DNA of 64,000 nucleotides from an uncultured Bacillota bacterium. GTDB lineage: Bacteria; Bacillota_I; Bacilli_A; RF39; UBA660. This document shows positions 2,102 to 55,091 of this stretch, one piece after another (position 1 is the stretch's first letter; each line of letters starts with the position of its first letter). The stretch lies in contig CAJMGO010000004.1 in assembly GCA_905212975.1 (NCBI GenBank), positions 4,044-68,043 on the forward strand, written 5' to 3'. A model generated the notes under the pieces. It searched no databases. It was not told where the DNA came from and worked only from the letters and a program-made list of their open reading frames with translations. The position numbers were made by a program, and so were the translations under genes.

Positions 2102-2124
2102 AATATCACCTATATTCTAATTTA

Positions 2125-2571: not shown

Positions 2572-2575
2572 TTTA

Positions 2576-2608
2576 ATAAAAAAAGTTATAACATTTATAA
2601 CTTTTTTT
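2576..2608. terminator. Bidirectional rho-independent terminator
   Basis: Perfect 11-bp stem AAAAGTTATAA / TTATAACTTTT (2581-2591 / 2595-2605), 3-nt loop, flanked by an A-run and a T-run. Lies between convergent genes. Confidence 0.7.
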
Positions 2609-3155: not shown

Positions 3156-3170
3156 AATTTTTCTTCCTTT

Positions 3171-3731: not shown

Positions 3732-3909
3732 ATAACCACCACATTAATTATAAAATAGAAAATATGATTTGTAAAGATAATAAACACTATGTAGCTTATT
3801 TATACATACGTTTTTAACAAAGTGTTGTTTATTTATACGTATTTTTTATTATGTTGGTGTATTTTTTTAGAAAAAAGAATACAATTCTTTTGATGAATGG
3901 AGGAATAAT

Positions 3910-6900
3910 ATGAAAAAGTTTTCAAATTTTGTGTGTAAAAACAGAATAGCAATTTTGATTGTTTGTTCATTTTTATTTGTATTTTCAATAATAGGTACTA
4001 AAATGACAAAAATCAATTATGATATTTTAGTTTACTTACCAAAAGATATTGAAACAGTAAAAGGTCAAGATATAATGACAGATGAATTTGGTATGGGTGC
4101 ATATTCTGTTGTTATGACTGATAATATGAGTTCTAAAGAAATTTTAGAATTGGAAGAAAAATTTAGAAATATTGATGGAGTAAGTAAAGTTATAAGTGCT
4201 TATGATGTAATAGGTACTAATATTCCAATAAATATGCTTCCAAATAATATAAGTTCAAAACTTAATAAAGATTCTACTGATTTGTTATTTGTTACATTCG
4301 ATGAATCTACATCATCTATTAAAACTATAGATGCTATAAGAGAAATGAAAAAAATAAACAAAGACGATGTTAGTATAAGTGGTATGAGTTCTATGGTATT
4401 AGATACTATGGATTTATCAGAAAGAGAAATATTTATATATGTTGTAATAGCTGTTATTTTATGCTTACTTGTTCTTGAACTTTCTTTGGATTCTTATTTA
4501 GTACCAGTATTATTGTTAGCAAATATTGGTATAGCTATTTTATATAATTTAGGATCAAATATTATATTTGGAGAAATATCTTATATAACAAAAGCATTGG
4601 TTGCCGTATTACAACTTGGTGTTACAACTGACTTTTCTATATTCTTATATCACTCATATGAAAATAAGAAGAAAGATATAAAAGATAAAAATGAAGCAAT
4701 GAGTGAAGCAATATGTGAAACATTTATATCAGTAACTGGTAGTTCACTTACAACAATTGTTGGATTTCTAGTTCTTTGTACAATGAATTTAACTCTTGGT
4801 AAAGATTTAGGGCTTGTAATGGCTAAAGGTGTATTTTTAGGAGTAGTATGTGTTTTAACTTTGTTCCCAAGTTTACTTCTTACATTTGATTCACTAATAG
4901 AGAAAACTAAACATAAAGCTATTAAATTTAGTTTTAAAGGAATAAATAAATTTGTAATTAAACATTATAAAGCAATATTTATTGTATTTATTATATTGCT
5001 TATACCACTTTATAAAGCAAATAGTAAGGTAAGTGTTTATTATAAAATTGATGAAAGTTTACCAAAAAATTTACATAGTATAGTAGCTAATGAAAAATTA
5101 AAAGAAAAATTTAATATAGTTTCTGCAGAAATTATATTAGTTGATAAAAATATGAAAGCATCTGATCAAGAAAAGATGGTATCAGAAATAGAATCATTAG
5201 ATGGCATTGATTTTGTATTATCATTTTCTAAAGTAGAAGAACTTGGTATAACAAGAAATATGTTAAGTGATGATTTATTAAAAGTATTTGAAAGTGATAA
5301 ATATCAAATGATGTTATTAAATTCTGAATATGATGTCGCTACAGATGAATTAAATAATCAAGTAGATAGTATTAATACAATAATAAAAAAATATGATAAA
5401 AATGCTATATTAGCTGGAGAAGGTCCGCTAATGAAAGATTTAGTTACAATAAGTGATGAAGATTTTAATAGTGTAAATACATCTTCTATATTCTTTATAT
5501 TAATAGTAATGTTATTTGTTCTAAAATCAGTATCACTTCCAATATTATTGATTTTAGCAATAGAAGCTGCAATATTTACAAATATGGGAATATCTTATTT
5601 TTCAGGTTCAGTACTTCCTTTTGTAGCGCCAATAGTTCTTGGAACAATTCAACTTGGAGCAACAATTGATTATGCAATTCTATTGACTACTAATTTTATT
5701 AATTTAAGAAAACAAGGAAATAACAAATTTGAAGCTATAGAAAAATCATTAGATTATTGTTCTAATTCGATATTTGTAAGTGGAATGTGTTTCTTTGCAG
5801 CAACATTTGGTGTTGGTTTATATTCTGATCTAGAAATGGTTGGATCATTATGTACATTAATATCTAGAGGTGCAATTATAAGTATGATAGTTGTTATAAC
5901 TGTACTTCCTTCAATATTATTAGTTTTTGATAAATTAATAATAAAAACTACTTTGGGTATGAAAGGAATGAATAAAATGAAAAAGAAAACAATAAATAAA
6001 GCGAAAAAAGTACTTGCTGCTTTTCTAATTACTTCATGTGCATTATTACCAAATGTATCTTATGCACTAACAAAAGAAGAAACTGTATATGCTAAATTAA
6101 ATAGTGATGGTAGTGTAAAATCTACTACTGTAAATGAACATCTAATAAATGATGAAAAATTAGATTCAATTATTGATTATTCAGATTTAGAGAATATTAC
6201 TAATACTAATAGTAATAATAAATTTAAATCAGAAAATACTCTTTTAACTTGGGATGCTAAAGGAGAAGATATATTTTATCAAGGTACAACAAAAAAACAA
6301 TTACCTATAACTGAATCTGTTACTTATAAATTAAATGGTGAAGAAAAAGATTTAAAAGACATATTAGGTAAAAGTGGGAATATTGAGATAAATATTACTT
6401 ACACAAATTTAGATAAACATAATAAATATATAAATGGAAGATATGAAAATTTATATACTCCTTTTGTTGTAGCTACATCTACAGTTATACCAGTAGAAAA
6501 TAATAGTGATGTAACAATAACTAATGGTAAGGTTGTAAATAATGGAAACTCTTATGTATTAGTAGGTTTATCATCACCAGGCCTTTATGAAAGTACTCGT
6601 ATAAATGATTTAAAAGATTTTAATAAAATAACTATAAAATATAATACTAAAAATTTTGAATTATCATCAATTTATTCAATTATTACTCCAAAATTAATAA
6701 GTAGTAAAGATATAAACAGTTTAGTTAACTTAAATTCTTTATACAGTAGTGTAGAATTATTACAATCTTCAATTGATAAAATAGAAGAAGGTTCAAAAAA
6801 AGCTTTAGATGGTATAACTAGTGTTGAAGATGGAAGTATTAAAATAAATGATAACTTAAAAATTGTATCACAAAAATTAGATGAAATAAAAAATGGTAGT

Positions 6901-21536: not shown

Positions 21537-21542
21537 TAAATT

Positions 21543-21707
21543 ACTAGAGGAAGTTATAAAAGAAAAACCTACAAGTAAACGATTCGGGAACTTAATGAAT
21601 AGGTTGTGTTGAATGCTTAAATTTATTTAAGAATCCTAATATTTATTCTGTAGTGCCCACCTGGTAGAACAGGTTTTATCGTTTAGACTTCTTCTAGTTT
21701 TTTTTTT
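21543..21707 (+). ncRNA. Candidate 6S-like structured RNA (~165 nt)
   Basis: Own promoter. 11-bp end-to-end closing helix (21544-21554 with 21687-21697). 7-bp helix AAAACCT/AGGTTTT (21564-21570 / 21671-21677). Large unpaired central region on both strands. Apical hairpin CTTAAA-TTTA-TTTAAG. U-run 21698-21707. Confidence 0.45.
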
Positions 21708-21748
21708 GTATTTATGTTATAATTGTCTTAATGATAGGAGGCATCATT

Positions 21749-24007
21749 ATGAGTAAGAAAAAAAAGAGAAAAGAAGAAGGTAAAACTCCTAAAAAATATT
21801 CTACAGAATTATTTGGTTTACTTCTTATAATAATTGCTCTTATAGGTTTTATTCCAAAAACAGGAATTATAGGTAATTTTATAAGTAGTTTTTCATCCTT
21901 TTTAGTTGGAATATGGTATGGTTTGTTTTTGATAGCTTTAATAGTTATTGGAATATATATGATTATAAAAAGAGAAAAACCAGACTTTTTTACATCAAAA
22001 CTTGTTGGGCTTTATATATTTATTTTAGGATTATTAGTTTTAACTCATACTAAATATATAAAAGATACTGATTTAAAAGGAATGGATATAATCAGTGAAA
22101 CTTTAAATCAATTTATGGCTTCTATATCATCAGGTAAAAGTCAATTAGGTGGTGGAATTATAGGAGCTGCATTTTCTTGCCTTTTTGTAACTCTTTTTGA
22201 TACAACAGGAACTACTATTGTAACATGGGCATTACTTATATGTGGTGTTGTTATGTTTACTGGAATGTCTATTATGGATATTTTAAAGAAAGGTGCTTCG
22301 AAGGTTAAAATAACAAAACATGAAAAGAAAGAAAAAGAAGAAAAAAATGAAGTTAGAGAAATTCATGACTTAAAAGAACTTGATGAAGTAAATGAACAAA
22401 GTGATAAAAGAACTGTTGTAACATCAATAGATGAGATAATAAATATTAATAATAATGCAAAGGAAGAAGTTAAACCAGATGTTATTTTAGAACCAAAAGA
22501 TGTTGTTGAAGAAATTGAACCTATAAATAAAAAAGGCTATGTTCTTCCTTCTAATAATCTTCTTTCTAAACCAAAACAAAAACAAGTAGAGAGTAAAGAT
22601 ACTATTGCTCATAATGTTACTGTACTTGAACAAGTTTTAAAGGATTTTGGTATAACTGGACATGTTGTTGCAATTAATCCTGGACCTACGGTTACTCAAT
22701 ATGAAGTAGAAGCTGCAAGTGGTACAAAAATGAGTAAAGTTTTAAGTATTCATAGGGAAATTGCTCTTGCTTTAGCTGCTAAAAATATTCGTATAGAAGC
22801 ACCTATACCTGGTAAATCAACTATAGGTATAGAAATACCTAATAAAGTTGTTTCTACTGTAACAGTAAGAGAAATTCTAGATAGTGTACCTCCTAAATAT
22901 AAAGATTCTAAATTGCTTACTACTTTAGGTAGAGATATAATGGGATCTCCTCAATATTGTGAGATTAATAAAACACCACACCTTTTGGTTGCTGGATCTA
23001 CTGGTAGTGGTAAATCAGTATGTATAAATAGTATGATTGTATCAATACTTATGCGTTCTAAACCTGATGAGGTAAAATTAGTATTAGTTGATCCAAAAAA
23101 GGTAGAACTTTCTATGTATAATGGAATTCCACATTTATTAACTCCTGTTGTAACTGATCCAAGAAAGGCTAATATAGCTTTAAAGAAGATTGTTACTGAA
23201 ATGGAAAATAGATATGATATGTTTAGTGATAGTGGTACTAAAAATATTGCTGGATATAATGAATATGTTGAAAAAGAAAATAAAAATAGAGATGAAAATC
23301 ATAAGATTAGAAAATTACCATTTATAGTTGTAATAATTGATGAACTTGCTGATTTAATGCTTGTTGCTGCAAAAGAGGTAGAAGATTCCATTATGCGTAT
23401 AACTCAAATGGCAAGAGCAGCTGGTATTCATTTGATTGTAGCGACTCAAAGACCTTCAACTGATGTAATTACTGGTGTTGTAAAAGCTAATATTCCATCT
23501 CGTATTTCATTTGCTGTTTCATCTAGTATAGATTCAAGAACAATTCTTGATATGACAGGTGCTGAAAAATTACTTGGTAAAGGTGATATGTTATTCTTAC
23601 CTCAAGGAGAAAATACTCCTATAAGAATTCAGGGTACTTTTATAAGTGATGAAGAAATAAAGAAAGTTGTAGATTATACTATAAATCAACAAAAAGCTCA
23701 TTACGATGAAACTTTTATAATGAGTGATGAAGAGATGCATGCTACAACTATGGTAAACGAAACAAGTAGTTCAAATCCTCATGAAAAAGATGCTACGGAA
23801 GAGCCTTTATATAATGAAATTGTTGAATTCGTTGTAACACAAGGTAAGGCAAGTGCTTCGCTTTTACAAAGAAGATTTAGACTTGGATATAATAGGGCAG
23901 CACGTGCAATTGATTTGTTAGAAGAACGTGGTATTGTAGGACCTCAAAATGGTTCTAAGCCAAGAGAGGTACTTATAAAACTTGAAAAAGAAGATAATGA
24001 TGATTAA
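21749..24007 (+). CDS. ftsK: DNA translocase FtsK/SpoIIIE
   Basis: AGGAGG SD before ATG 21749. 4-5 N-terminal TM segments, linker, motor domain (GSTGSGKSV, VVIIDELADLM, IVATQRPS) and gamma winged helix (LLQRRFRLGYNRAARAIDLLEERGIVGP). Confidence 0.95.
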   Translation: MSKKKKRKEEGKTPKKYSTELFGLLLIIIALIGFIPKTGIIGNFISSFSSFLVGIWYGLFLIALIVIGIYMIIKREKPDFFTSKLVGLYIFILGLLVLTHTKYIKDTDLKGMDIISETLNQFMASISSGKSQLGGGIIGAAFSCLFVTLFDTTGTTIVTWALLICGVVMFTGMSIMDILKKGASKVKITKHEKKEKEEKNEVREIHDLKELDEVNEQSDKRTVVTSIDEIININNNAKEEVKPDVILEPKDVVEEIEPINKKGYVLPSNNLLSKPKQKQVESKDTIAHNVTVLEQVLKDFGITGHVVAINPGPTVTQYEVEAASGTKMSKVLSIHREIALALAAKNIRIEAPIPGKSTIGIEIPNKVVSTVTVREILDSVPPKYKDSKLLTTLGRDIMGSPQYCEINKTPHLLVAGSTGSGKSVCINSMIVSILMRSKPDEVKLVLVDPKKVELSMYNGIPHLLTPVVTDPRKANIALKKIVTEMENRYDMFSDSGTKNIAGYNEYVEKENKNRDENHKIRKLPFIVVIIDELADLMLVAAKEVEDSIMRITQMARAAGIHLIVATQRPSTDVITGVVKANIPSRISFAVSSSIDSRTILDMTGAEKLLGKGDMLFLPQGENTPIRIQGTFISDEEIKKVVDYTINQQKAHYDETFIMSDEEMHATTMVNETSSSNPHEKDATEEPLYNEIVEFVVTQGKASASLLQRRFRLGYNRAARAIDLLEERGIVGPQNGSKPREVLIKLEKEDNDD

Positions 24008-44598: not shown

Positions 44599-45753
44599 AT
44601 GAAAAAACTTAAAAATACACTTAAAGATATGGATAAAGTATTACTTATATGTACTGTTATATTATTTGTTTTTGGGCTTTTAAATATAGTAACAGCTTCT
44701 AGTCAAGTAGCAGTATTAAAGTATAATACGTCACTTTATAATTATTTTTTTAAACAAGCTGCAATACTTATTGGTAGTGTTATTATAAGTATATATATAA
44801 TTATGAAACCAACTAGAAATTATAGAGTATTTGGACTTGTTTTATTTATTGTAGTTGGCATTTTGAATGTAGCAGTTTTATTCATAGGACAAAATTGGAG
44901 TGGTAATCAGAACTGGATTGATTTTGGCTTTTTCAATTTACAACCAAGTGAACTTGCTAAACCAACAATGATAATTTTTTTAAGTGTTTTATTTGAAGCT
45001 TTTTATTTTAGATTAAGAAATCCAAATAAAGATCATAATAGTATGTTAGCTATTATATTATTTGCAGGATTATTTTTCCCATTAATGGTTTTTTTACAAA
45101 AAGATATGGGTACAATGATAATTTTATGTGTTATATTCTTTGTTATGTTTTTTGCAAGTCCAATATTAAAAAGTGATAAATTAAAAGTTCTGTTTCTTGT
45201 TTTGATATTAGGTGTAGTTGGTATATTTATAATTTTTGTTAATGCGGGTAAATTATTTTCAGAAAAACAACTTAATAGATTTAATTTTTTTGATCCATGT
45301 TCTAGATATGAAAGTGGTGGATATCAAATATGTAATGGATTTATAGCTATTAATTCTGGAGGATTATTTGGAGTAGGAATAGGTAATAGTACACAAAAAT
45401 CTTATATTCCAGAAGCTCATACAGATTCAGTATTTGCTATAATAGCAGAAGAATATGGGTTTATTTTTTCAAGTGTAATATTAATTTTGTATATTATTGT
45501 TTTATATAGAATACTTAAAATATCTAGTACATCTAAGACAATAAGAGGAAGATATATAGCATTTGGTATGTCTATATATATTTTCTGCCATATATTCATT
45601 AACTTAGGAGGATTATTTGGTATTATTCCTTTAACAGGTGTACCACTTCCATTTTTATCTTATGGAGGTTCATTTACTCTTTCTCTTTTCTGTTCTTTAG
45701 CAGTTATTCAGAGAATACATATAGAAAATAAAAATCAAAAAATAAAGGTTTAG
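44599..45753 (+). CDS. rodA: SEDS-family protein RodA/FtsW paralogue
   Basis: FNLQPSELAK, LQKDMGT, IPEAHTDSVFA, GVPLPFLSYGGS. Second SEDS gene in the window. Confidence 0.8.
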   Translation: MKKLKNTLKDMDKVLLICTVILFVFGLLNIVTASSQVAVLKYNTSLYNYFFKQAAILIGSVIISIYIIMKPTRNYRVFGLVLFIVVGILNVAVLFIGQNWSGNQNWIDFGFFNLQPSELAKPTMIIFLSVLFEAFYFRLRNPNKDHNSMLAIILFAGLFFPLMVFLQKDMGTMIILCVIFFVMFFASPILKSDKLKVLFLVLILGVVGIFIIFVNAGKLFSEKQLNRFNFFDPCSRYESGGYQICNGFIAINSGGLFGVGIGNSTQKSYIPEAHTDSVFAIIAEEYGFIFSSVILILYIIVLYRILKISSTSKTIRGRYIAFGMSIYIFCHIFINLGGLFGIIPLTGVPLPFLSYGGSFTLSLFCSLAVIQRIHIENKNQKIKV

Positions 45754-45780
45754 AACAAGTTTTTTATAAAACTTGTTTTT
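45754..45780 (+). terminator. Rho-independent terminator
   Basis: 10-bp stem AACAAGTTTT / AAAACTTGTT with a 4-nt loop, then a T-run. Confidence 0.65.
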
Positions 45781-45827
45781 AATTCTTATTTTTTATGTTA
45801 AAATATGTTTAGTTAGTGGGTGAGTTT

Positions 45828-47105
45828 ATGGAAAGAGTTATACCATCAGATAAATTTATTGTTATAAATAAATCAATTTTAAATGATAGTGATAGAAAAA
45901 TTCTTTTCATGCTATATCAGCCTATAATAGGTCAATCATCAATTAGTCTATATTTTTCCCTTTGGGCATATTTAGATCAAAATGATATAACTTCATCTGA
46001 TTGGACACATCTACATCTTATAAATAATACTCAAATGGATCTAGATGAAATTATAAATTCTAGAGAAAAGTTAGAAGGTATAGGACTTTTAAAAACATAT
46101 GTTAAAAGAGGTATTACAAATGAATATGTATATGAATTGTATTCTCCTTTATCTGTTTATGAATTTTTGAATAATCCTGTTTTAAATATAAGTTTATATA
46201 ATAGTGTCGGTGAAACTGAGTTTGAAAGAATAGTTTCTTATTTTAAAATTCCAACTATAAATTTAGATGAATATGAAGATATAACTTCATCATTTAATGA
46301 TATATTTATGAGTATTGATTTTGATAGTTATAGACCTATATTAGGTGATTTAAGAGAAAATAAAAAGAACAAACTAAAAATATTATCTTCATTTAATTTA
46401 GAAAATACAATAAGTCTTATACCCGAAGAACTACTAGATACAAAATATGTTACAAATGAAATAAAAGATTTTTTATATAAATTGTCATTTATTTATAATT
46501 ATAATGATTCAGAAATGCTAGAATTGATTAAAAATTCAATTATAGATAAAAAAATAAGTAAAGAACTTTTAAAAGAAAATGCAAGAAAATATTATAAGTT
46601 TGAAAATCCTGATAAAGTGGTTGGAATTGTATATAAAAAGCAACCCGAACGTTTAAGAAAAGAATATGGGAACAGTAAAAAAGATAAAATAATATATCAA
46701 TTTGAAACAATGAGCCCATATGAATTTATATGTAATAAGCATGGTGGTGATAAACCGACTAAGCATGAAATAAATATATTAGAATATCTTCTTGATGATA
46801 TGAATTTAAATCCTGGAGTTGTAAATGTTATTATTGATTATGTACTTAAAATAAGCAATAATAAATTAAATAAAAATTTTGTTGATGCTGTAGCGACACA
46901 GTTTTCAAGAAGTAAAATAGAAACGGTAGAAGATGCTATGGCTTTAGCAAACCAAGAATATAAAAATAGAAATAAAACTAAAACAACAAAGAAAGTTAAA
47001 GTTTTAGAGAGTGTTCCAGAATGGGCAAAGCAAGAAAATGACATGAAGCAAGGTAGTGCTGAAGATATTAAAAAGATGGAAGAAATGCTAAGCAAATTTG
47101 AGTAG
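45828..47105 (+). CDS. dnaB: Replication initiation and membrane attachment protein (B. subtilis DnaB type, DnaD-like domains)
   Basis: N-terminus ..DSDRKILFMLYQPIIGQSSISLYFSLW..EKLEGIGLLKTYVK..YVYELYSPL closely parallels B. subtilis DnaB. GGGTGAG SD before ATG 45828. Confidence 0.85.
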   Translation: MERVIPSDKFIVINKSILNDSDRKILFMLYQPIIGQSSISLYFSLWAYLDQNDITSSDWTHLHLINNTQMDLDEIINSREKLEGIGLLKTYVKRGITNEYVYELYSPLSVYEFLNNPVLNISLYNSVGETEFERIVSYFKIPTINLDEYEDITSSFNDIFMSIDFDSYRPILGDLRENKKNKLKILSSFNLENTISLIPEELLDTKYVTNEIKDFLYKLSFIYNYNDSEMLELIKNSIIDKKISKELLKENARKYYKFENPDKVVGIVYKKQPERLRKEYGNSKKDKIIYQFETMSPYEFICNKHGGDKPTKHEINILEYLLDDMNLNPGVVNVIIDYVLKISNNKLNKNFVDAVATQFSRSKIETVEDAMALANQEYKNRNKTKTTKKVKVLESVPEWAKQENDMKQGSAEDIKKMEEMLSKFE

Positions 47106-47117
47106 GTGAATTGAAAT

Positions 47118-48041
47118 ATGAAAAATGTAATTGATTCAATTGATAAATATAATAAAAAAAAGAATCTTGAAACAGAATTATATAAAGCTTTTAATGAATC
47201 ATATAGTAACGATAAATTTAAACGCCTTGTAGATAAATTGAAATTAAATATAGAAGTATTATCTAAATATACAAGTGAGTTGGAAGAATCATCTATTGAA
47301 TATGATCATTGTTTAAATTGCAAGGGATTAATTGAATGTAAAAATAAAATATGTGGATATGCTTATTTACCAAATAAAAAAGATAAATCACTTTCTTTTG
47401 GATATAAGGCTTGTAAATTTAAGAATAAATATGAAAAGGAAAACTCATATAAAGATAATGTTTATGTATATAATGAACCGAAGGAAATAGCAAACGCTAG
47501 AATAAAGGATATATACAAAAAAGATGCGTCTAGATATCCTGTTATAACTTATCTTATGGATTTTCTAGAAAAGTATTTAAATGGTGAAAAGGTAAAAGGA
47601 ATATATTTAAGTGGAAGCTTTGGAAGTGGAAAAACATATTTAGTTTCTGCTGTGTTTAATGAACTTGCTAAAAATAATATAAAAAGTTCTATTGTATATT
47701 GGCCTGAATATATATCTTATTTAAAAACTTTATTTGGAAAAGAAGAATATATAACTGTACTAAATAAAGTAAAAAAGATACCTATTTTACTTATTGATGA
47801 TATAGGTGCTGAAGCAAATACTTCATGGGAAAGAGATGAGGTATTGGGACCAATACTTCAATATAGAATGCAAGATGAATTGCCAACATTTTTTACATCT
47901 AATTTAGATATAAATATGTTAGAACAACATCTTTCTAATAGTAAAGATGGAATAGAAGAAATAAAAGCTAAAAGAATAATTGAGAGGGTAAGACAGTTAA
48001 CTAGTGAATTTAATTTAGTTACAAAAAATTATAGGAAGTAA
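47118..48041 (+). CDS. dnaI: Primosomal helicase loader DnaI
   Basis: N-terminal Cys-rich Zn module (CLNCKG..C), AAA+ core GSFGSGKTY, LLIDDIGAE. Confidence 0.85.
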   Translation: MKNVIDSIDKYNKKKNLETELYKAFNESYSNDKFKRLVDKLKLNIEVLSKYTSELEESSIEYDHCLNCKGLIECKNKICGYAYLPNKKDKSLSFGYKACKFKNKYEKENSYKDNVYVYNEPKEIANARIKDIYKKDASRYPVITYLMDFLEKYLNGEKVKGIYLSGSFGSGKTYLVSAVFNELAKNNIKSSIVYWPEYISYLKTLFGKEEYITVLNKVKKIPILLIDDIGAEANTSWERDEVLGPILQYRMQDELPTFFTSNLDINMLEQHLSNSKDGIEEIKAKRIIERVRQLTSEFNLVTKNYRK

Positions 48042-48053
48042 GGTTGGGCTTTT

Positions 48054-50699
48054 ATGGAAAATATAGTAAGAAAAATAGAAAAAATTAATTCAATTAATAA
48101 AAAAAGAATGTATTTATCAAAAAAAATACAACTATTAAATTATAATGATAAAATAAAACTTTTAAATGCCCTAATAGATAGTGCAACTACAAAGTATGAA
48201 AAACTAAGTAATTTGAAAAAACAATATGAAAAGTATTTAAAAACAAATAGAGTATTTAAATCTATTAGTGAAATAGAAAAATTTAAAGAAAACATAGATT
48301 TATATAAAGAAATTAAAGACTATATTGAGGTAGAACATAGTATTAAAATAAAAAATAAAAATTTATTATTTAAAATTAACGATACAGAAATTAAAAATAT
48401 TGATGTTATTCTTAATAGAAATACTTATGTTCTATTTGATAAGTTAAATTATGAATTTGATACAGATAAAAGGATTTTAATATTAATTCAATTAAAACAA
48501 ATATATTCAAAAGCAAATATCAAAATAAAAAAAGAAAATTTTGGATCTGAATATAAGACTTTTGAACGAATATATAGATATATAAATAATTTGATAAAAA
48601 TAGAGTATGAAATAAAGGATAAAATTAAAGCAAGTAAAAAAGAAATAATTGTTAAAAAGAAATATTATTATCCTGTATTGAAACTAAATGAAAAGCAAAT
48701 ATTAACCATTGATTTGAAAATTAATACGAATATATTAGAAACATTAAAAAAACTAGAAAATGAAACAGATATAAATAAAAGAATAAAACTATTAAATTTA
48801 TTGAAAAGTAAATGTATAGATATTTATTCCACACTAGAAAAGAATACTTCAAAAGAAATTTATAAATATGTAAAAGAAATTGAGGAATATTCTAATGAAG
48901 CTATAAAAATAGAACATAAAAAGAGAAAAAATATTTCAAAAAAGAATAGCAATGAAATAAATAATAATTCAAAATTGTCGAAAAAAGAGCTAGAAGTAGT
49001 TGATAAAATTAAAAATAATGATTGTTTAGACAGATATACTTTATTAGAAATTTTAACAGCATATAAGTATTTAGTTATGAATTATGTTAAAGACTATTCA
49101 ATAAGTATTCTTAATGTATCAAAGTATATATCTAACAAAATAATTGATGAAGAAATTAAAGATGATAAAGATATTGTTATGATAAATTCAATAAAAGATA
49201 CAATTAGATATAGATTACTTTCGTTAAATAAAAATGATGATAATGAATTGGAACGTTCTATATTAAAGGAATTGAGAATTGTATTTGATTTTATTTGTAA
49301 AAATTATAAAGAAGATACAAAAAGTACAGAACATGATTATAGATGTGATGTCATAAAATACTATTTAAAAGATGAAAATGGATATCCATATGTAAAAAAA
49401 ATAATTAATTATATGCCAGAAATAGTAAATGTTAGAGTAAAAGAACATAGTAATGAACATATAATTATAAATATATTAAAGGAATATATCTATAATTATA
49501 AAGAAATGTTAAAAGATAAAAATGGTTGTTTTATAAATCCAGATTATTTAAAACAAGTATATTTATTATTCATGAACAATAGTAATTTGAAGTTGAATTT
49601 TGAAGATAAAGTAACAATTGACTATATATTAGATGATTTTATACTTTATCTAGATAAAGAAATATATAAAGAAGATAGAAAAACCTTAGCAAAAAAAGAA
49701 GTAAGAAAATTAAAAAGTCAATATTTATATTATGAAAAGAAATTAAAATTTAGAAAAGTTGATGAAAGACAATTAAGATGGCAAACTGAGTTATTATCAA
49801 ATAATAGAACACATTGTTTGAAAAAAGACAATAGAGTAAATGTATTAGATGACTGTATCACATTAAATGGAATTAATGCTTATTCATTATCTCAAGATGG
49901 TGATAAGAGAAAACTTAAAATACATGTAATAGATACAAGTAAAATTGTCGCACCATATACATCAGTGGATAGTAAAATTTATAACTGCATGATTGAACAT
50001 GAAAAAATTAGTGAAAATATAAAAAGAAAATTAGCATTAAAATATAATGAAGAAAATCCTACAATTACATATGAATTTAATATTGAAAAAGGTAATTGTA
50101 TTACAGATTTTAAGATTTATAAAAGTAAAATCTTCATAGATGAGGAAAATAATACTTTATTGAAAAACTTAAGTCAATTATCCAAAAAAATTCTAGCTTC
50201 TAAGAATATTAAAGATTTCGAAAGCTATACAATTGATGAATCTATTGAAATATTACTTAATGAAGAATTTATAAATTATATTGATGAAAATAAACTACCA
50301 TTTATTTATTGTGGAAAAGAATATATAAATGATTATATAAATCATATGAATAATTTAAGTAATATATTTAATAGGTTGAATGTAATTGATTTTAAGAAGT
50401 TATACACTATTATTAGTAATAATGTAGGTGAATATAATTATTCTACAAAAGCATTCGAAGTTGATGGAACATATAATTTAAATTTAATAAATGACATTAA
50501 TTATTTATTTATTTTTAATCAACGATTAATTACAGATATTATTTTTAATAACCAAAAGCTTAAAGATAAATCAAAATATTTAAAAGAATGTGAAAAATTA
50601 GAGCATGAGTTAAATCTAAGTATTAATCATATTAAGCCAGAAGATATAGTATTTAAAAATAATGCTAAAAGGAATAAATTAAAACAATTTAATTTGTGA
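48054..50699 (+). CDS. Large Lys/Asn-rich hypothetical protein (881 aa) with possible degenerate RNB-like C-terminal domain
   Basis: 12 nt after dnaI. No TM or NTP-binding motif. Residues ~594-834 follow RNase II/R (RNB) motif order with catalytic residues replaced (see findings). Confidence 0.6.
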   Translation: MENIVRKIEKINSINKKRMYLSKKIQLLNYNDKIKLLNALIDSATTKYEKLSNLKKQYEKYLKTNRVFKSISEIEKFKENIDLYKEIKDYIEVEHSIKIKNKNLLFKINDTEIKNIDVILNRNTYVLFDKLNYEFDTDKRILILIQLKQIYSKANIKIKKENFGSEYKTFERIYRYINNLIKIEYEIKDKIKASKKEIIVKKKYYYPVLKLNEKQILTIDLKINTNILETLKKLENETDINKRIKLLNLLKSKCIDIYSTLEKNTSKEIYKYVKEIEEYSNEAIKIEHKKRKNISKKNSNEINNNSKLSKKELEVVDKIKNNDCLDRYTLLEILTAYKYLVMNYVKDYSISILNVSKYISNKIIDEEIKDDKDIVMINSIKDTIRYRLLSLNKNDDNELERSILKELRIVFDFICKNYKEDTKSTEHDYRCDVIKYYLKDENGYPYVKKIINYMPEIVNVRVKEHSNEHIIINILKEYIYNYKEMLKDKNGCFINPDYLKQVYLLFMNNSNLKLNFEDKVTIDYILDDFILYLDKEIYKEDRKTLAKKEVRKLKSQYLYYEKKLKFRKVDERQLRWQTELLSNNRTHCLKKDNRVNVLDDCITLNGINAYSLSQDGDKRKLKIHVIDTSKIVAPYTSVDSKIYNCMIEHEKISENIKRKLALKYNEENPTITYEFNIEKGNCITDFKIYKSKIFIDEENNTLLKNLSQLSKKILASKNIKDFESYTIDESIEILLNEEFINYIDENKLPFIYCGKEYINDYINHMNNLSNIFNRLNVIDFKKLYTIISNNVGEYNYSTKAFEVDGTYNLNLINDINYLFIFNQRLITDIIFNNQKLKDKSKYLKECEKLEHELNLSINHIKPEDIVFKNNAKRNKLKQFNL

Positions 50700-50727
50700 T
50701 TGACAAATTAAAAATTAGTGGTAAAAT
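50700..50727 (+). promoter_or_regulatory. Promoter of the thrS leader
   Basis: TTGACA (50700-50705), 16-nt spacer, TGgTAAAAT (50719-50727). Confidence 0.5.
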
Positions 50728-50733
50728 TTAAGT

Positions 50734-50935
50734 AATAGTTTTGATTTGGACATGATTATTGAATAAAACTAATTTTAGCGATTTAGGAATGGTGAAAGCC
50801 TAAAAGTAAAATTTAATAATTACTACCAATGAACTGAACTCAAAAGAGTTTCCGGGTTATTCCGTTAAAAATATAAAAGTAAAAAAAAGGATGGTACCGT
50901 GCTTTCTGCACTCCTTAGTACTATTCTTTTTTGCG
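50734..50935 (+). promoter_or_regulatory. T-box leader (Thr specifier) with intrinsic terminator
   Basis: Stem I distal GGTGAAAG (50791-50798). Specifier region ACU-ACC-A (50822-50828). T-box core GGATGGTACCGTG (50889-50901). 15-bp terminator stem 50883-50897 / 50918-50932 followed by a U-run. Confidence 0.8.
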
Positions 50936-50951
50936 TTTTGGAGGAGTATGT

Positions 50952-51398
50952 ATGAACGTAAGTAGAAAAAACATTTTGGAAATAAGAGAGTTTATGTGGA
51001 ATTTTTTAAATCTTAAGTATGATGGAAAATTGAAGTTAACACATGAAGAGTTTTCAAATTATTTAATTATGAAAGGGAAAACACACTTAACACATGTTAA
51101 TTTTAAAAAAATAAAAAAAGAAGATATATTAAATGGTACATATATTTTAGTAAGAGATGATGTAGGCAAAATTATTCCGTATGAAAGGCCAATAAATCTT
51201 TCTATGTTATGCAATCAAATTAAACAAAATGAGGAAAAATTAAAGAGAGACTTAGTAAGAAAAAGATATCTGGAAGAACAAGGTTATAGAGAACTTCCAA
51301 ATGGGGAAGTATTATCGAATGATTTTTTCGAGGCAGAACCTTGTATTACACAAAAATTAAATAGAGTTAAGACTTTAATAAGAAGAGGAATAAGATAA
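50952..51398 (+). CDS. Hypothetical 148-aa protein between the T-box terminator and thrS
   Basis: GGAGGA SD (50940-50945) before ATG 50952. The ORF-track start at 50931 lies inside the terminator. No recognised motif. Confidence 0.5.
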   Translation: MNVSRKNILEIREFMWNFLNLKYDGKLKLTHEEFSNYLIMKGKTHLTHVNFKKIKKEDILNGTYILVRDDVGKIIPYERPINLSMLCNQIKQNEEKLKRDLVRKRYLEEQGYRELPNGEVLSNDFFEAEPCITQKLNRVKTLIRRGIR

Positions 51399-51415
51399 GT
51401 AAAGAGGAGAATAAT

Positions 51416-53173
51416 ATGATTAATTTTAAAGAAAATGAAGATTTAAATAAATTAAATCATAGTTGTGCGCATTTACTTGCACATGCTATAAAACATTTAT
51501 ATCCAAATGCAAAGTTTTGGGTAGGCCCTGTTGTGGAAGAAGGATTTTATTATGATATTGATTTAGGTGATGATGTAATAAAAGAAGATGATTTACCTAA
51601 AATAGAGAAAGAAATGAAAAAAATCAGTAAGGACAATAAGTTAATTAAAAGAATAGAGCTTACTAAACAAAATGCATTAGAAATGTTTAAAGATGATCCA
51701 TATAAAATAGATTTAATTAGAAGAATGAATGAAAACGATACAGTAATTTCTGCATACCAACAAGGTGATTTTATTGATTTATGCAGAGGACCGCATATGA
51801 ATTCTACGAAAGATATGAAGTATTTTAAACTTGTAAAAGTAAGTGGAGCATATTGGAAAGGTGATTCAAAAAACAAAATGCTTCAAAGAATTTATGGCGT
51901 TTGTTTTGAAAAAGAAGAAGATTTGATGAACTATTTATCTTATCTTGAAGAAGCAAAGCTACGTGATCATAGAAAAATAGGTAAAGATCTAGATTTATTT
52001 ATGACTGATGATTTAGTTGGTAGGGGATTACCTATGTTTTTACCAAATGGATATATAATATGGCAAGAATTAGAAAATTATATAAAAAACAAAGAAAAAA
52101 GGCTTGGATATCAACATGTTATGACACCATGTGTTGGAAATGTAGAATTATATAAAACAAGTGGACATTGGGAACATTATAAAGAAAACATGTTTCCTGC
52201 AATGGAGGTCGATGGAGAAAGTTTTGTGTTAAGACCAATGAATTGTCCTCATCACATGATGATATATGCTAATAAATTACATTCATATAGGGATTTACCT
52301 ATAAGAATTGGTGAAATTGCTCATGATTTTAGATATGAATCAAGTGGTTCATTAAAAGGAATAGAAAGAGGAAGACATTTTTGCCAAAATGATGCACATT
52401 TATTTGTAACACCTGAACAAATAAAGGATGAATTTAAAAAAGTTGTTGATTTAATACTAGATACATATAAAGACTTTGGAATTAAAGACTATAGATTTGT
52501 TTTATCTCTTCGTGATTCAGAGGATAAAGAAAAGTATCATCAAGATGATGAAATGTGGGAAAAAGCAGAAAATGGACTTAGAGAGGTTCTAAATGAACTT
52601 GGTATTAATTATACTGAAGAAATAGGAGAGGCAGCTTTTTATGGCCCAAAGTTAGATGTTAATGTTAGACCTGCTGTTGGTAATGAATATACATTATCTA
52701 CTTGTCAATTAGATTTTTGTTTACCTGCTAAATTCGATTTAAAATATGTTGATAAGGATGGGTCAAAGAAAACACCTGTTGTATTACATAGAGCAATATT
52801 AGGTTCAATTGATAGGTTTATGGCTTATATTTTAGAGGAAACAAAAGGGAATCTTCCACTTTGGTTATCACCAGTACAAGTTAATATAATTCCTGTTAAT
52901 AATGAATATCATCTAGAATATTGTAACAAGTTACATGAAAAATTATTGGATGAAAATATAAGGGTTGAACTTGACAACAGAGATGAAAAATTATCATATA
53001 AAATACGTGAAAGTCAAACTCATAAAATTCCATTTACATTAATAATTGGCCAAAATGAAGTTGATAATAATTTAATAAGTTATAGAAAATTTGGTACCAC
53101 AGAAACAGTAACTATATCTATTGATGAACTTATAATATTACTAAAAAAAGCAATAAAAAATAAAGAATTATAA
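51416..53173 (+). CDS. thrS: Threonyl-tRNA synthetase (short form without N-terminal TGS domain)
   Basis: Starts ~14 aa before the editing-domain HSCAHLLAHA motif. Class II core (FVLRPMNCPHH, GIERGRHFCQNDAH, YGPKLD) and anticodon-binding C-terminus. 585 aa. Confidence 0.95.
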   Translation: MINFKENEDLNKLNHSCAHLLAHAIKHLYPNAKFWVGPVVEEGFYYDIDLGDDVIKEDDLPKIEKEMKKISKDNKLIKRIELTKQNALEMFKDDPYKIDLIRRMNENDTVISAYQQGDFIDLCRGPHMNSTKDMKYFKLVKVSGAYWKGDSKNKMLQRIYGVCFEKEEDLMNYLSYLEEAKLRDHRKIGKDLDLFMTDDLVGRGLPMFLPNGYIIWQELENYIKNKEKRLGYQHVMTPCVGNVELYKTSGHWEHYKENMFPAMEVDGESFVLRPMNCPHHMMIYANKLHSYRDLPIRIGEIAHDFRYESSGSLKGIERGRHFCQNDAHLFVTPEQIKDEFKKVVDLILDTYKDFGIKDYRFVLSLRDSEDKEKYHQDDEMWEKAENGLREVLNELGINYTEEIGEAAFYGPKLDVNVRPAVGNEYTLSTCQLDFCLPAKFDLKYVDKDGSKKTPVVLHRAILGSIDRFMAYILEETKGNLPLWLSPVQVNIIPVNNEYHLEYCNKLHEKLLDENIRVELDNRDEKLSYKIRESQTHKIPFTLIIGQNEVDNNLISYRKFGTTETVTISIDELIILLKKAIKNKEL

Positions 53174-53257: not shown

Positions 53258-53764
53258 ATGATAAATAAAAAGAATTTATGGTTTTTGACATTATTTAGTT
53301 TAATTTTAGTATTGAGTGTGTATTATGTTACAATGCCAACAGAATTATTGATAACAAATAATTCTAATTTTGTAACTAAAGATACTAGTGAAGAGGATAC
53401 AAAAGTTTCTATAGAAGAAAATGAAGTAATAACAGCTTTAAAAGTTGCTGATGATGAAGAATATTTAAAAGAATTAGATACATTAAAATTAGTATTAATG
53501 GACAATAAGTCAAGTGTTGAAGAAAAAAATGATGCATTTGATAAAATGAAAGATTTAAATACAAATAAGAATAAAGAAGAAGAGTTGGAAAATTTGATAG
53601 AATCTTCATATAAATTAAAATCTTTTATAAAAATAAAAAATAATCAAGTTAAAGTTGTTATATCTGGTAGTGAACATGATACAACACTAGCTAACAATAT
53701 AATGAATACAATTCAAGAAAAATTTGAAACAAAAATGTATGTAACTGTACAGTTTAGTGCTTAA
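53258..53764 (+). CDS. spoIIIAH: SpoIIIAH-like sporulation protein
   Basis: N-terminus KKNLWFLTLFSLILVLSVYYVTMP mirrors B. subtilis SpoIIIAH (..TVWLLTMLSLVVVLSVYY..). Acidic linker, then a YscJ/FliF-like C-terminal domain pattern (..KVVISGSEHDTTLANNIMNTIQEKF..VTVQF). Confidence 0.65.
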   Translation: MINKKNLWFLTLFSLILVLSVYYVTMPTELLITNNSNFVTKDTSEEDTKVSIEENEVITALKVADDEEYLKELDTLKLVLMDNKSSVEEKNDAFDKMKDLNTNKNKEEELENLIESSYKLKSFIKIKNNQVKVVISGSEHDTTLANNIMNTIQEKFETKMYVTVQFSA

Positions 53765-53791
53765 AGTTCATAAATATATGAACTTTTTTTT
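53764..53791 (+). terminator. Rho-independent terminator
   Basis: Stem AAGTTCATA / TATGAACTT followed by T8. Confidence 0.65.
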
Positions 53792-53879
53792 AGTAAAAAA
53801 ACATACACATTGTATATTTAAATACATACAATAATATGAATAAAAATATAATCCATCATCTTAGAAAGAGAGGGAGTTT

Positions 53880-54086
53880 ATGAAAAAAAGCATATTAACA
53901 AAAAGAGAAAAAGAAGTCTTTGAATTGTTAATACAAAATAATACAACTGTTCAAATTTCTGAAAAATTAAAAATTAGTGAAAAAACAGTTAGAAATCATA
54001 TATCAAATGCTATGCAAAAGCTTGGAGTCAAAGGCAGAGCAAGTGCTGTTGTAGAATTACTTAAACTTGGTGAAATTACACTATAA
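53880..54086 (+). CDS. gerE: LuxR/GerE-family transcription factor GerE
   Basis: 68 aa, stand-alone HTH. LTKREKEVFELLIQNNTTVQISEKLKISEKTVRNHISNAMQKLGVKGRASAVVELLKLGE is near-collinear with B. subtilis GerE. Confidence 0.85.
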   Translation: MKKSILTKREKEVFELLIQNNTTVQISEKLKISEKTVRNHISNAMQKLGVKGRASAVVELLKLGEITL

Positions 54087-54110
54087 AATCGCATTAAAGC
54101 GGTTTTTTTT
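54086..54110 (+). terminator. Rho-independent terminator after gerE
   Basis: 7-bp stem AAATCGC / GCGGTTT followed by T8. Confidence 0.55.
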
Positions 54111-54134
54111 CATACTATTAATTAAAGAGGTGAA

Positions 54135-55091
54135 ATGGTGTTAAAAAAGAGGATACTAAATAGAATTATAATTACATCGGCTACGTTATTTACTTTATTT
54201 TTACTTACTTTAATGCCTAAAACTAATGTATTAGAAGTTGAAAAAAAATTGGAATATGTTGATTATACTTTAGAAAGTAATGTCATTTATTTAATTGATC
54301 AATATGATTACGTTTCAAGAACAACTGTCGCCCTTGAACATAATGAGAAAATAGATCAAAAAGCAAAGGAATTATTAGAGCTTCTAATAATTTCAGGAAA
54401 AGAAGAAAGCAAAATTCCAAGTGGTTTCAAACCAGTAATTCCAAGTGATACAAAAATATTGAGCGTTGAATATGTCGAAGGTACAATTAAGGTAAATTTT
54501 TCGATTGAATTTTTAAATATAGAAGAATTTAACGAAAGCAAAGTAATAGAATCAATTGTGTATACATTAACATCCATAGAAAATGTAAAAAATGTTATAA
54601 TATATGTAAATGGTGATGTACTAACAAAGCTGCCATCTGGGAAAATTCTTCCAACATCATTAGATAGAGGCTATGGAATTAATAAAGAATATGATATTAC
54701 AACTTACAAAAATATTGATAAAATAACAATATATTATTTAAGTAAATATAATGATAATATTTATTATGTACCAGTTACTAAGTATATTGATGGTGGTAGT
54801 GATAAAATAGATGTAATTGTTCAAGAATTATCTAAGGGTTCATTATATCATAACAATTTAATAAGCTATCTAAATAATAATACTAAAATATTAAATAAGA
54901 AAAATGATAATAGCAGTATATATTTAACATTTAATGAAAATATTTTTGATAATATTGATACGTATAATATACTAGAAGAGGTTATTAACACAATAAGTTT
55001 ATCAATTGGTGATAATTATGATGTTGATGAAGTTATATTTAATTATAATGGAAAAGAAATTTATAAAAGTGTTATAAAAACTATTGAATAA
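54135..55091 (+). CDS. gerM: GerM-like germination/sporulation protein (two GerMN-type domains)
   Basis: N-terminal TM or signal. Two repeats of the GerMN pattern (..VIYLIDQYDYVSRTT..IPSGFKPVIPSDTKILSVEYVEGTIKVNFS..; ..ITIYYLSKYNDNIYYVPVT..). Confidence 0.6.
   Translation: MVLKKRILNRIIITSATLFTLFLLTLMPKTNVLEVEKKLEYVDYTLESNVIYLIDQYDYVSRTTVALEHNEKIDQKAKELLELLIISGKEESKIPSGFKPVIPSDTKILSVEYVEGTIKVNFSIEFLNIEEFNESKVIESIVYTLTSIENVKNVIIYVNGDVLTKLPSGKILPTSLDRGYGINKEYDITTYKNIDKITIYYLSKYNDNIYYVPVTKYIDGGSDKIDVIVQELSKGSLYHNNLISYLNNNTKILNKKNDNSSIYLTFNENIFDNIDTYNILEEVINTISLSIGDNYDVDEVIFNYNGKEIYKSVIKTIE

Follow-up and report, generated by a model that had tools for sequence, protein, structure and literature searches.

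A probable non-catalytic RNB-fold protein encoded between dnaI and the thrS T-box leader in uncultured gut Bacilli

Active exoribonucleases of the RNase II/R (RNB) family are defined by a four-aspartate signature, DxxxxxDxDD; the mutation of a single one of these aspartates abolishes activity in every RNB enzyme that has been tested, and it is by the loss of these aspartates that RNB pseudonucleases are conventionally recognised (PMC8097288). Ssd1 (7am1) is a fungal, Dis3L2-derived pseudonuclease of this kind (PMC8097288, PMC8934651), and the cyanobacterial protein Zam represents a bacterial RNB clade whose active site is degenerate and whose molecular function is not known (PMC9145284). Ssd1, and possibly Zam as well, acts as an RNA-binding regulator (PMC8934651; PMC9145284). 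The genomic setting considered in the present work also has a described counterpart: in B. subtilis the genes dnaB, dnaI, ytxB, ytxC and thrS form one operon (PMC8208703), a conserved neighbourhood which the first-pass annotation of the DNA studied here had named, and ytxB and ytxC occupy the slot between dnaI and thrS. In the locus described below this slot is filled by a gene, called X here, with no detectable homology to ytxB or ytxC, and neither X nor the small ORF that accompanies it matches any Pfam family.

The window, by which is meant the whole stretch of DNA that was analysed, comprises 64,000 nt from an uncultured Bacillota bacterium (Bacilli_A; RF39; UBA660; assembly GCA_905212975.1, contig CAJMGO010000004.1, positions 4,044-68,043 of the forward strand). 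The locus is laid out as follows.

45816..47105, + strand: dnaB, opening gene of the block, for a replication initiation protein of the Firmicute DnaB/DnaD type and not for the helicase; Pfam DnaB_2, E 2.4e-12
47118..48041, + strand: helicase loader of the dnaI AAA+ type, separated from dnaB by 12 nt; Pfam Bac_DnaA/IstB_IS21/AAA, weak DnaI_N
48054..50699, + strand: gene X, predicted 881-aa RNB-fold pseudonuclease; ATG start, 12 nt after dnaI
50700..50727, + strand: thrS leader promoter, sigma-70 type (TTGACA, 16 nt, TG-TAAAAT); 11/12 matches plus TG
50732..50918, + strand: Thr-specific T-box leader (ACU 50822-50824, ACC 50825-50827); Rfam 69.6 bits, E 9e-15
50952..51398, + strand: small ORF, 148 aa, uncharacterised family, T-box-controlled, candidate partner of X; RBS GGAGGAG, family alignment
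51416..53173, + strand: thrS, 585 aa (tRNA_SAD, class II core and anticodon-binding domain; no TGS detected); Pfam

The first-pass annotation had described the spacing of this block correctly: the gaps between dnaB and dnaI and between dnaI and X are both exactly 12 nt, and the stop codon of X (TGA, 50697-50699) abuts the -35 element of the thrS leader (TTGACA, 50700-50705), the promoter of which begins on the base after the stop and is the best promoter-like site within 45500-51500. X is the third cistron, closely packed behind dnaB and dnaI, and runs on directly into the promoter and T-box of thrS. The T-box score of 69.6 bits lies below the Rfam gathering score of 93, so that the leader is missed at the gathering threshold and found by E-value. 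The heptamer UACUACC, which contains the Thr codons ACU and ACC, is invariant in five aligned T-box leaders; an alternative specifier, ACU at ~50766, was rejected because the conserved Thr codons sit at 50822-50827. The earlier picture of the locus omitted the 148-aa gene between the T-box and thrS, which is real and belongs to a family of 84 relatives, none of which (0/84) carries a Pfam domain; the small ORF has no match in the PDB.

The product of gene X is, as had been noted, rich in Lys (15.4%), Ile (12.8%) and Asn (11.1%), with no Walker A motif anywhere in its 881 residues and no transmembrane segment (the maximum Kyte-Doolittle mean over 19 residues is 0.69). Its parts, and the nucleotide features within the gene, are these.

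48054..49148, + strand: variable all-helical N-terminal region, residues 1-365, an allele-exchange hot spot within the species; AF2 model, conspecific contigs, dN/dS
48375..48557, + strand: internal repeat copy 1, residues 108-168; an HMM built on this segment also detects copy 2
48684..48863, + strand: internal repeat copy 2, residues 211-270; i-E 1e-6 in X
49149..49823, + strand: conserved helical mid domain, residues 366-590, specific to the X family
49365..49525, + strand: imperfect direct repeats of 17 nt at 49365-49381 and 49509-49525, the borders of a naturally occurring deletion of 144 nt that keeps the frame
49824..50696, + strand: degenerate RNB (RNase II/R) domain, residues 591-881
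49848..49880, + strand: remnant of the metal-binding loop (DxxxxxDxDD-A), residues 599-609, D-D-C-I-T-L-N-G-I-N-A; column view and hhalign to P0169 'IDEESTLDMDDA'
50499..50501, + strand: N816, at the catalytic Arg position of 'SPIRRY'; column view and hhalign to P0169

Scans of X against Pfam (E <= 1), NCBIfam (E <= 0.1), PHROG and PADLOC return no match, and a pairwise BLASTP comparison with a canonical RNase R detects nothing; the RNB assignment therefore rests on profiles and on predicted structure. In the AF2 model of residues 370-881 (pLDDT 92.5, pTM 0.84) the C-terminal ~325 residues are predicted to adopt the RNB fold, and the top 41 Foldseek matches to this model are all RNB proteins (E 1e-9 to 1.5e-5), the next match lying at 0.05; the full-length model, which is of lower confidence, leaves this pattern unchanged. 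When the profile of the X family is compared with the PDB, the sole match at E <= 10 is RNase R (E 3.7e-4), and hhalign relates the family both to the canonical RNase R of locus L020 (E 1e-4) and to P0169, a 650-aa metagenomic relative, over 428 columns (probability 96%, E 4.3e-9). Pfam RNB (PF00773) is matched by 22 of the 121 long members of the family, among which no other Pfam family turns up repeatedly. Membership in the RNB family is thus seen for X at the level of the predicted fold, and not at that of sequence, where X does not reach the curated thresholds of PF00773 or of the NCBIfam RNase R/II models.

The four RNB-like motifs that had been matched by eye in the first-pass annotation are all reproduced by alignment. 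The stretches 'NAYS...KIHVIDTS' and 'PTITYE...FKIYKSKI' of X align to 'DAVTV...VHIADVS' and 'LTLSCE...IFQSVI' of RNase R; 'LLNEEF...LPFIY' aligns to 'LVANETV...VPFIYR' in the second stretch of the PDB profile alignment; and 'YNYS...NDINYLFIFNQRLI' aligns to 'AKYS...SSPIRRYSDVVLQRI' in P0169. The motifs of X appear in the same order as in RNase R and RNase II (8cdu from B. subtilis, 7dic from M. genitalium, 2ix0 from E. coli), namely A-x-S after the metal loop, then H-x-x-D, PFIY, Y-S and Y...QR.

What separates X from these enzymes is the active site and the architecture around it. The four-aspartate signature is replaced by D599-x5-N605-x-I607-N608, in which three of the four aspartates are gone. 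An acidic residue is kept at the first position (D599 in X, E in relatives), a mapping which depends on the alignment used, because the metal loop contains a gap when X is aligned by HH comparison with the RNase R of L020 and is ungapped, except for one residue, in the alignment to P0169; both alignments place I607-N608 at the D209/D210 positions, directly preceding the conserved Ala. The sequence N-D-I-N816-Y stands where S-P-I-R-R-Y is expected, with the loss of the catalytic Arg of the SPIRR(Y) motif, which we take to be R500 in E. coli RNase II, and the 'SVYL...PMLP' substrate-clamp segment of RNase R and RNase II is replaced as well. These enzymes carry CSD1/CSD2 and S1 domains, whereas no CSD or S1 Pfam domain is found in X or 121 relatives, and the N-terminal 590 residues of X are instead all-helical in the predicted structure. 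Because the Mg-binding aspartates, the catalytic Arg and the clamp segment are lost and CSD and S1 domains are lacking, X should be unable to break down RNA in the manner of RNase II; binding of a substrate in the canonical channel is itself uncertain, because the clamp region has also been remodelled. X therefore combines a predicted RNB fold with the degenerate signature of a pseudonuclease, as the first-pass annotation had proposed when it described a catalytically dead protein with a substituted metal cluster and Arg, and we hold it highly probable that the family as a whole is one of RNB pseudonucleases.

It could be argued that the RNB domain has been neo-functionalised, and that X is still a nuclease or another enzyme with a different active site. 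Polar and aromatic residues (Y610/S611, D627, P749/Y752, Y796, Y817, Q823/R824) are near-invariant across the family, and the first Asp position has stayed acidic, as D599 in X and as E in relatives. The conserved residues, however, are those of RNB structural motifs (HxxD, PFIY, YS, QR) which are kept in canonical enzymes too, and X has lost three aspartates and the Arg in a family of enzymes where the mutation of one aspartate is enough to abolish activity in those tested (PMC8097288), so that we consider continued catalysis very improbable.

The origin of the family is indicated by P0169, the only one of 170 X family sequences in which DxxxxxDxDD and SPIRR occur together (the DxxxxxDxDD expression by itself also has a match somewhere in P0041). 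P0169 shares with X the helical mid domain (about 366-590) and the RNB domain; unlike X it keeps TIDEESTLDMDDA and SSPIRRY, scores 215 bits against TIGR02063 RNase_R, has no long variable N-terminal region and is followed, in the one flank available, by genes unrelated to thrS. Because the mid domain is found in this rare relative with an intact active site, the X family most likely descends from an active nuclease composed of a helical domain and an RNB domain. The same comparison revises the earlier description of a novel N-terminal region of ~590 aa: the segment is in fact made up of a variable repeat region (1-~365) and a conserved mid domain, the latter shared with P0169. Neither has a PDB match in Foldseek searches with the X models.

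X is analogous to Ssd1 and Zam and is not a member of their clades, because it has no cold-shock domains, which Ssd1 keeps and depends on. Ssd1 belongs to the eukaryotic Dis3L2 branch, a lineage unrelated to X, which implies that the two lost their activity independently, and X has in addition a specific operon context. Zam is, like X, from a bacterial clade of the RNB family in which the active site is degenerate, but differs in its CSD1 architecture, its redox-active cysteines and its link to photosynthesis, and X differs from it in phylum and in its dnaI/thrS context.

The reading that we prefer, with a probability of roughly 0.75, is that gene X encodes a non-catalytic pseudo-exoribonuclease which is descended from a nuclease with a helical domain and an RNB domain and is co-produced in the dnaB-dnaI block. 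Such a protein would be a binding or adaptor protein, probably made together with DnaB and DnaI and probably working with the small 148-aa protein; the RNB remnant would provide a scaffold for a single-stranded nucleic-acid end or a protein surface, and the variable N-terminal helices may serve as an interaction module.

The N-terminal region has an unusual history within the species. A repeat of ~60 aa is present in two copies in X and is found in homologues with i-E 2e-21 to 1e-13, those of ~790 aa having a single copy. When X is compared with the conspecific loci L023, L024 and L025, nucleotide identity drops exactly at the start codon, from 98-100% in dnaB and dnaI to 57-64% in the N-terminal region, where dS is ~1.1 against 0.006-0.04 in dnaB and dnaI. 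The recombination breakpoints differ among the three loci, and in L025 the divergent tract extends past X through the small ORF into thrS. X also diverges much faster than its neighbours (in L019, identity is 52% for DnaB, 55% for DnaI and 29% for X), and an 833-aa deletion allele, P0003, in which 48 residues of the best-conserved segment of the mid domain are missing, is present on 14 contigs; the existence of this natural allele argues against an essential core role in replication. The gene is nevertheless under purifying selection, with a dN/dS that rises from 0.18 for the RNB part through 0.27-0.34 for the mid domain to 0.39-0.42 for the N-terminal region, which contradicts relaxed selection.

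These features might be taken to mean that X is a conflict-related or dispensable accessory gene, for example a guard or decoy for helicase-loading proteins targeted by phage, the position of which is inherited synteny and the N-terminal region of which is under diversifying or frequency-dependent selection. The sharp identity boundary, the differing breakpoints, the high N-terminal dS, the common in-frame deletion allele and the rapid divergence all suit this idea, but dN/dS is below 1 everywhere, so there is no signal of positive selection at this resolution, and homologous exchange with a sister species could be enough to produce the mosaic; the L025 tract reaches thrS. Neither X nor eight diverse relatives match a PADLOC model, and no relatives were found on viral contigs (IMG/VR, one pattern set, which distant phage relatives may escape); P0156 and P0169 match phrog_13933, 'nuclease'. 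No phage or defence-island context of the kind that marks known anti-phage systems is seen, and X has kept its place in the chromosome across deep divergence, which is not typical of defence islands. A role in conflict is on this balance unlikely.

X is the founding member of a family, not described before, from gut Bacilli that are uncultured and low in GC. An exhaustive HMMER search yields 163 cluster representatives at E <= 1e-3, 77 of them at <= 1e-30, and a second, word-indexed search added no relatives. Conserved co-location with dnaI, which would be looked for in a component of the helicase-loading system, is present: of the 19 distinct lineages whose flanks are long enough, 16 have dnaI immediately upstream of X, even where identity has fallen to ~20%, and among these are L004 (24%), L029 (about 20%) and L017. 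DnaB in related loci has WHD_DnaB and DnaB_2 domains, and DnaI is 46-61% identical. The first-pass annotation had asked whether orthologues always follow dnaI, and the exceptions are L020, L027/L028 and L030; none of the outcomes that it had named as fatal (no RNB-fold signal, relaxed selection, no linkage to dnaI) was encountered. The linkage to thrS is as tight, since almost every locus has X immediately before the thrS T-box, and that to the small ORF is equally so: a homologue of it is present in all loci with flank from X to thrS, L020 excepted, and in L027/L028/L030 it immediately precedes X. In L027 this neighbour, a protein of 169 aa, belongs to the small-ORF family, and was rejected as a truncated DnaI; a descent of the small ORF from the RNase R gene which takes its position in L020 was rejected as well, there being no similarity.

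The first-pass annotation had held that X was recruited into the replication-initiation operon. Gene order is consistent with this, but the thrS leader and the small ORF are linked to X equally well, and to occupy this slot says little in favour of a role in replication because B. subtilis already has a dnaB-dnaI-ytxB-ytxC-thrS operon, in which any gene of the slot would be linked. The connection to replication thus rests on gene order, and helicase loading or replication initiation as the partner process of X is put forward tentatively. The more specific proposal, that in a lineage of uncultured low-GC Bacilli X and the 148-aa protein form a hitherto unknown accessory factor which assists DnaB and DnaI in helicase loading, the dead RNase II funnel holding a 3' end while DnaI loads the helicase, is a rather improbable one; the single-stranded end would belong to an RNA primer, to an R-loop or to origin DNA that has been unwound.

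X could also be sought on the other side of the slot, as an RNA-binding regulator tied to thrS and not to replication, whose dead RNB domain binds a single-stranded 3' end, for example that of the thrS leader transcript or the NCCA terminus of tRNA-Thr, and which together with the small T-box-controlled protein modulates antitermination or the fate of thrS mRNA. The near-constant place of X upstream of the T-box speaks for this, as do the location of the partner ORF behind the T-box and the loci in which X adjoins thrS without dnaI: L027/L028, the former with the order small ORF, X, T-box, thrS, and L020, where X is represented by a short homologue and the gene behind it, for a canonical RNB/CSD2 nuclease, overlaps thrS. 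The action of Ssd1, and possibly Zam, as RNA-binding regulators (PMC8934651; PMC9145284) offers an analogy. In L004 and L017, however, X stays with dnaB-dnaI while thrS is not downstream, X lies upstream of and outside the T-box-controlled unit, and the canonical 3'-end-binding residues are lost, which leaves a thrS-directed function doubtful.

As a probable non-catalytic pseudo-exoribonuclease, X would add an independent bacterial case to the RNB pseudonucleases, which are known from fungi (Ssd1) and suspected in cyanobacteria (Zam); it is distinctive for its architecture, in which cold-shock and S1 domains give way to helical ones, and for its fixed place in a dnaB-dnaI-thrS operon, and its active-looking cousin P0169 shows where the family came from. 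The confinement of within-species allele replacement to the N-terminal third is unusual for a gene inside a housekeeping operon. At least 163 protein clusters and 84 relatives of the small ORF, so far without domain or name, gain an annotation. X is a candidate lineage-specific partner of the Firmicute helicase-loading proteins or of the thrS T-box system, and should its role as an accessory factor of helicase loading prove true, it would be the first exoribonuclease fold co-opted into replication initiation.

Gene X, the 881-residue reading frame that follows dnaI, is tightly packed, as in an operon, after dnaI and ahead of the thrS promoter and T-box leader:

45816-47105, gene with a DnaB_2 domain (Pfam), upstream of X
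47118-48041, DnaI/IstB-type AAA+ gene (Pfam), upstream of X
48054-50699, + strand, gene X, 881 aa, ATG start
50697-50699, stop codon of X
50732-50918, T-box leader (Rfam, 69.6 bits, E 9e-15)
50952-51398, + strand, conserved small ORF, 148 aa, ribosome-binding site GGAGGAG
51416-53173, + strand, thrS, 585 aa, with tRNA_SAD, class II core and anticodon-binding domains

Both spacers, dnaB to dnaI and dnaI to X, measure exactly 12 nt, the product is rich in Lys, Ile and Asn (15.4%, 12.8% and 11.1%), and a search of X for a Walker A motif and a membrane-spanning hydrophobic segment found neither, all of which agrees with the first-pass annotation of a real Lys/Asn/Ile-rich frame with this spacing and without transmembrane or NTP-binding motifs. 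That annotation had also set the stop codon against the -35 element of the thrS leader, and TTGACA does start on the base after the stop, followed by a 16-nt spacer and TG-TAAAAT; across a scan of 6 kb no site looks more like a promoter. Its order of dnaI, X and thrS leader stands, but it overlooked the real 148-aa gene ahead of thrS, which sits behind the T-box leader and so is under tRNA-Thr control. The leader scores below the Rfam gathering score of 93 and is consequently missed by a default Rfam scan; UACUACC, two Thr codons, is invariant in five aligned leaders from related loci. The threonyl-tRNA synthetase shows no N-terminal TGS domain, and its length is common to all related loci.

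The SpoIIIAH-like, GerE-type and GerM (Germane) genes at 53258-55091, 3' of thrS, point to an organism that has a cell wall and forms spores, despite the ~24% G+C of the window; at the matching position the related locus L001 also has a MvaI/BcnI-type restriction enzyme gene. An ftsK/spoIIIE gene (21731-24007) lies directly 3' of the first of the following RNA genes:

21538-21704, + strand, 6S RNA gene (56.9 bits, above gathering score)
20328, 55138, 56469 and 56560, tRNA genes

Taken alone, X has zero Pfam matches even at E <= 1 and none in NCBIfam, PHROGs or PADLOC, and its RNB (RNase II/R) homology emerges once relatives are included. None of the 20 full-length relatives from the first search (41-99% identity) has a Pfam domain; the distant relative P0021 (698 aa), which aligns to residues 426-829 (BLASTP E 2e-18), scores 44.5 bits on Pfam RNB, well past the gathering score of 29.3. 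HMMER, run exhaustively over 1.84 billion cluster representatives, returned 163 with E <= 1e-3, 77 of them with E <= 1e-30, a sizeable yet unannotated family in which 22 of 121 long members match Pfam RNB (best E 2.1e-64), the one Pfam family to recur. When the family profile is compared with all PDB sequences, B. subtilis RNase R (E 3.7e-4) is the sole match with E <= 10; the alignment covers 'NAYS...KIHVIDTS...PTITYE...FKIYKSKI' and a second stretch, 'LPFIY', and recovers the same segments that had been chosen by eye as RNB-like. With hhalign the profile aligned to the canonical RNase R of locus L020 (E 1e-4) and to the metagenomic protein P0169 (96% probability, E 4.3e-9, 428 columns). A full-length model for which the alignment was shallow came out at middling quality (pLDDT 71, pTM 0.35), and its 35 best Foldseek PDB matches were all RNase II/R/Rrp44/Dis3L2/Dss1; residues 370-881, modelled with a 93-sequence alignment, reached pLDDT 92.5 and pTM 0.84, and the top 41 Foldseek PDB matches, at E 1e-9 to 1.5e-5, were RNB proteins without exception (next 0.05). 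As a predicted structure, the fold of the C-terminal part is thus secure.

The signature DxxxxxDxDD is common to active RNB enzymes, and a family member that has lost its aspartates is by accepted usage a pseudonuclease (PMC8097288). The metal loop of X reads D599-DCITL-N605-G-I607-N608-A609, both when positions are counted from the conserved Ala and by hhalign to P0169 ('IDEESTLDMDDA'), which leaves the first acidic position as the sole survivor, an assignment made uncertain by a second alignment, with the L020 enzyme, that gaps the metal loop; in both alignments I607-N608, not D-D, precede the conserved Ala. X has N-D-I-N816-Y where 'SPIRRY' is expected, so the catalytic Arg is lost, and unrelated helical sequence takes the place of the 'SVYL...PMLP' clamp segment. 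Among X and 169 relatives, DxxxxxDxDD and SPIRR occur together only in P0169, whose score with the RNase R model of NCBIfam is 215 bits. The family and P0169 alignments therefore uphold the earlier claim that the acidic metal-binding cluster and catalytic Arg are substituted, and its core interpretation, a dead RNB-fold protein, is supported: X combines the RNB fold with a novel domain architecture and no longer carries the active-site signature.

The best-conserved part of X, residues ~366-590, is helical, and a PDB counterpart of it was not found. It was aligned by hhalign to the N-terminal part of P0169, whose active site is intact, and the architecture of helical domain plus RNB, being common to both, is older than the loss of catalysis; P0169 is likely a living representative of the active ancestor of the family. 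This 650-aa protein (L026, 195-2147) combines the X-type helical mid domain with intact DxxxxxDxDD and SPIRRY. Residues 1 to ~365 are helical and poorly conserved, and include an internal repeat of ~60 aa:

Residues 108-168, copy 1 of the repeat unit, from which the HMM was built
Residues 211-270, copy 2

In X the HMM detects copy 2 at i-E 1e-6; for relatives the values range from 2e-21 to 1e-13, and a single copy is present in homologues of ~790 aa. A Pfam scan of the long members found cold-shock or S1 domains in no member of the family. Dead RNB proteins have precedents in fungal Ssd1 (PMC8097288, PMC8934651) and cyanobacterial Zam (PMC9145284), but Ssd1 and Zam both keep cold-shock domains, and X is thus an independent, architecturally distinct case.

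X would work without catalysis, by binding or as an adaptor. Its neighbourhood was compared across 30 loci from metagenomes or MAGs annotated as uncultured Bacilli of human, rabbit and mouse gut. The linkage to dnaI is kept in relatives, dnaI being directly 5' of X in 16 of the 19 distinct lineages with enough flank, among them loci ordered ComEC-dnaI-X (L012/L013, X 30-32% identical) and ftsW-dnaB-dnaI-X (L029, ~20%); L004 also has dnaI before X, at 24% identity. The L004 block (1978-6858), the most distant dnaB-dnaI-X block, has a divergent Xre-type HTH gene pair before it. L004 and L017 keep dnaB-dnaI-X and lack thrS after X, and L027/L028 have rpsU-yqeY-smallORF-X-Tbox-thrS without dnaI; X is tied to the thrS leader as much as to dnaI. 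The genes dnaB-dnaI-ytxB-ytxC-thrS form one operon in B. subtilis (PMC8208703), and the slot held by X and the small ORF is ancient, for which reason X cannot be assigned to replication from position alone. The ranking of partner processes that we infer places helicase loading or replication first, as a hypothesis with a probability of about 0.3, ahead of an unlikely involvement with thrS, tRNA or the T-box RNA. Every locus that covers the stretch from X to thrS, L020 excepted, has a member of the small-ORF family (84 relatives, with no Pfam domain or PDB match); mostly it follows the T-box, and in L027/L028/L030 it is the gene directly before X. X travels together with this small protein, and that the two remain neighbours in both gene orders is the best hint that they are a functional pair. 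In L020 (4668-10701) the X homologue is short, 565 aa, and after it comes a canonical exoribonuclease with RNB and CSD2 domains (788 aa, Pfam RNB E 8e-100) that at its end overlaps thrS, with no dnaI upstream of the homologue and no T-box at E <= 0.001.

Divergence is faster in X than in the genes around it (L019: DnaB 52%, DnaI 55% and X 29% identical). The conspecific contigs L023, L024 and L025 match the window at 98-100% nucleotide identity in the dnaB/dnaI flanks, and identity sinks to 57-64% precisely at the X start codon and over the first third of X (48054-49150), to be regained at ~49150 in L024 and gradually by ~49580 in L023; L025 has a divergent tract that spans X and the small ORF and reaches into thrS. 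Since the breakpoints differ between contigs, the alleles are mosaic, and the divergent X alleles within the species are recombinants. The N-terminal third has dS ~1.1, against 0.006-0.04 in dnaB/dnaI, and dN/dS is below 1 throughout, falling from ~0.4 in that third through 0.27-0.34 for the mid domain to 0.18 for the RNB part: X is under constraint, strongest in the dead RNB domain, and purifying selection acts alongside fast divergence and allele exchange. In a common 833-aa allele (14 contigs; L001-L003), 144 nt are deleted in frame between a pair of imperfect direct repeats of 17 nt (window 49365-49525), and with them go 48 residues from the best-conserved stretch of the mid domain, which suggests that X is not essential. 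A conflict-related or otherwise accessory role stands last in the ranking and is the least probable of the three. X is an RNB pseudonuclease from a bacterium, and its accessory domains are new and its place in the operon is fixed.
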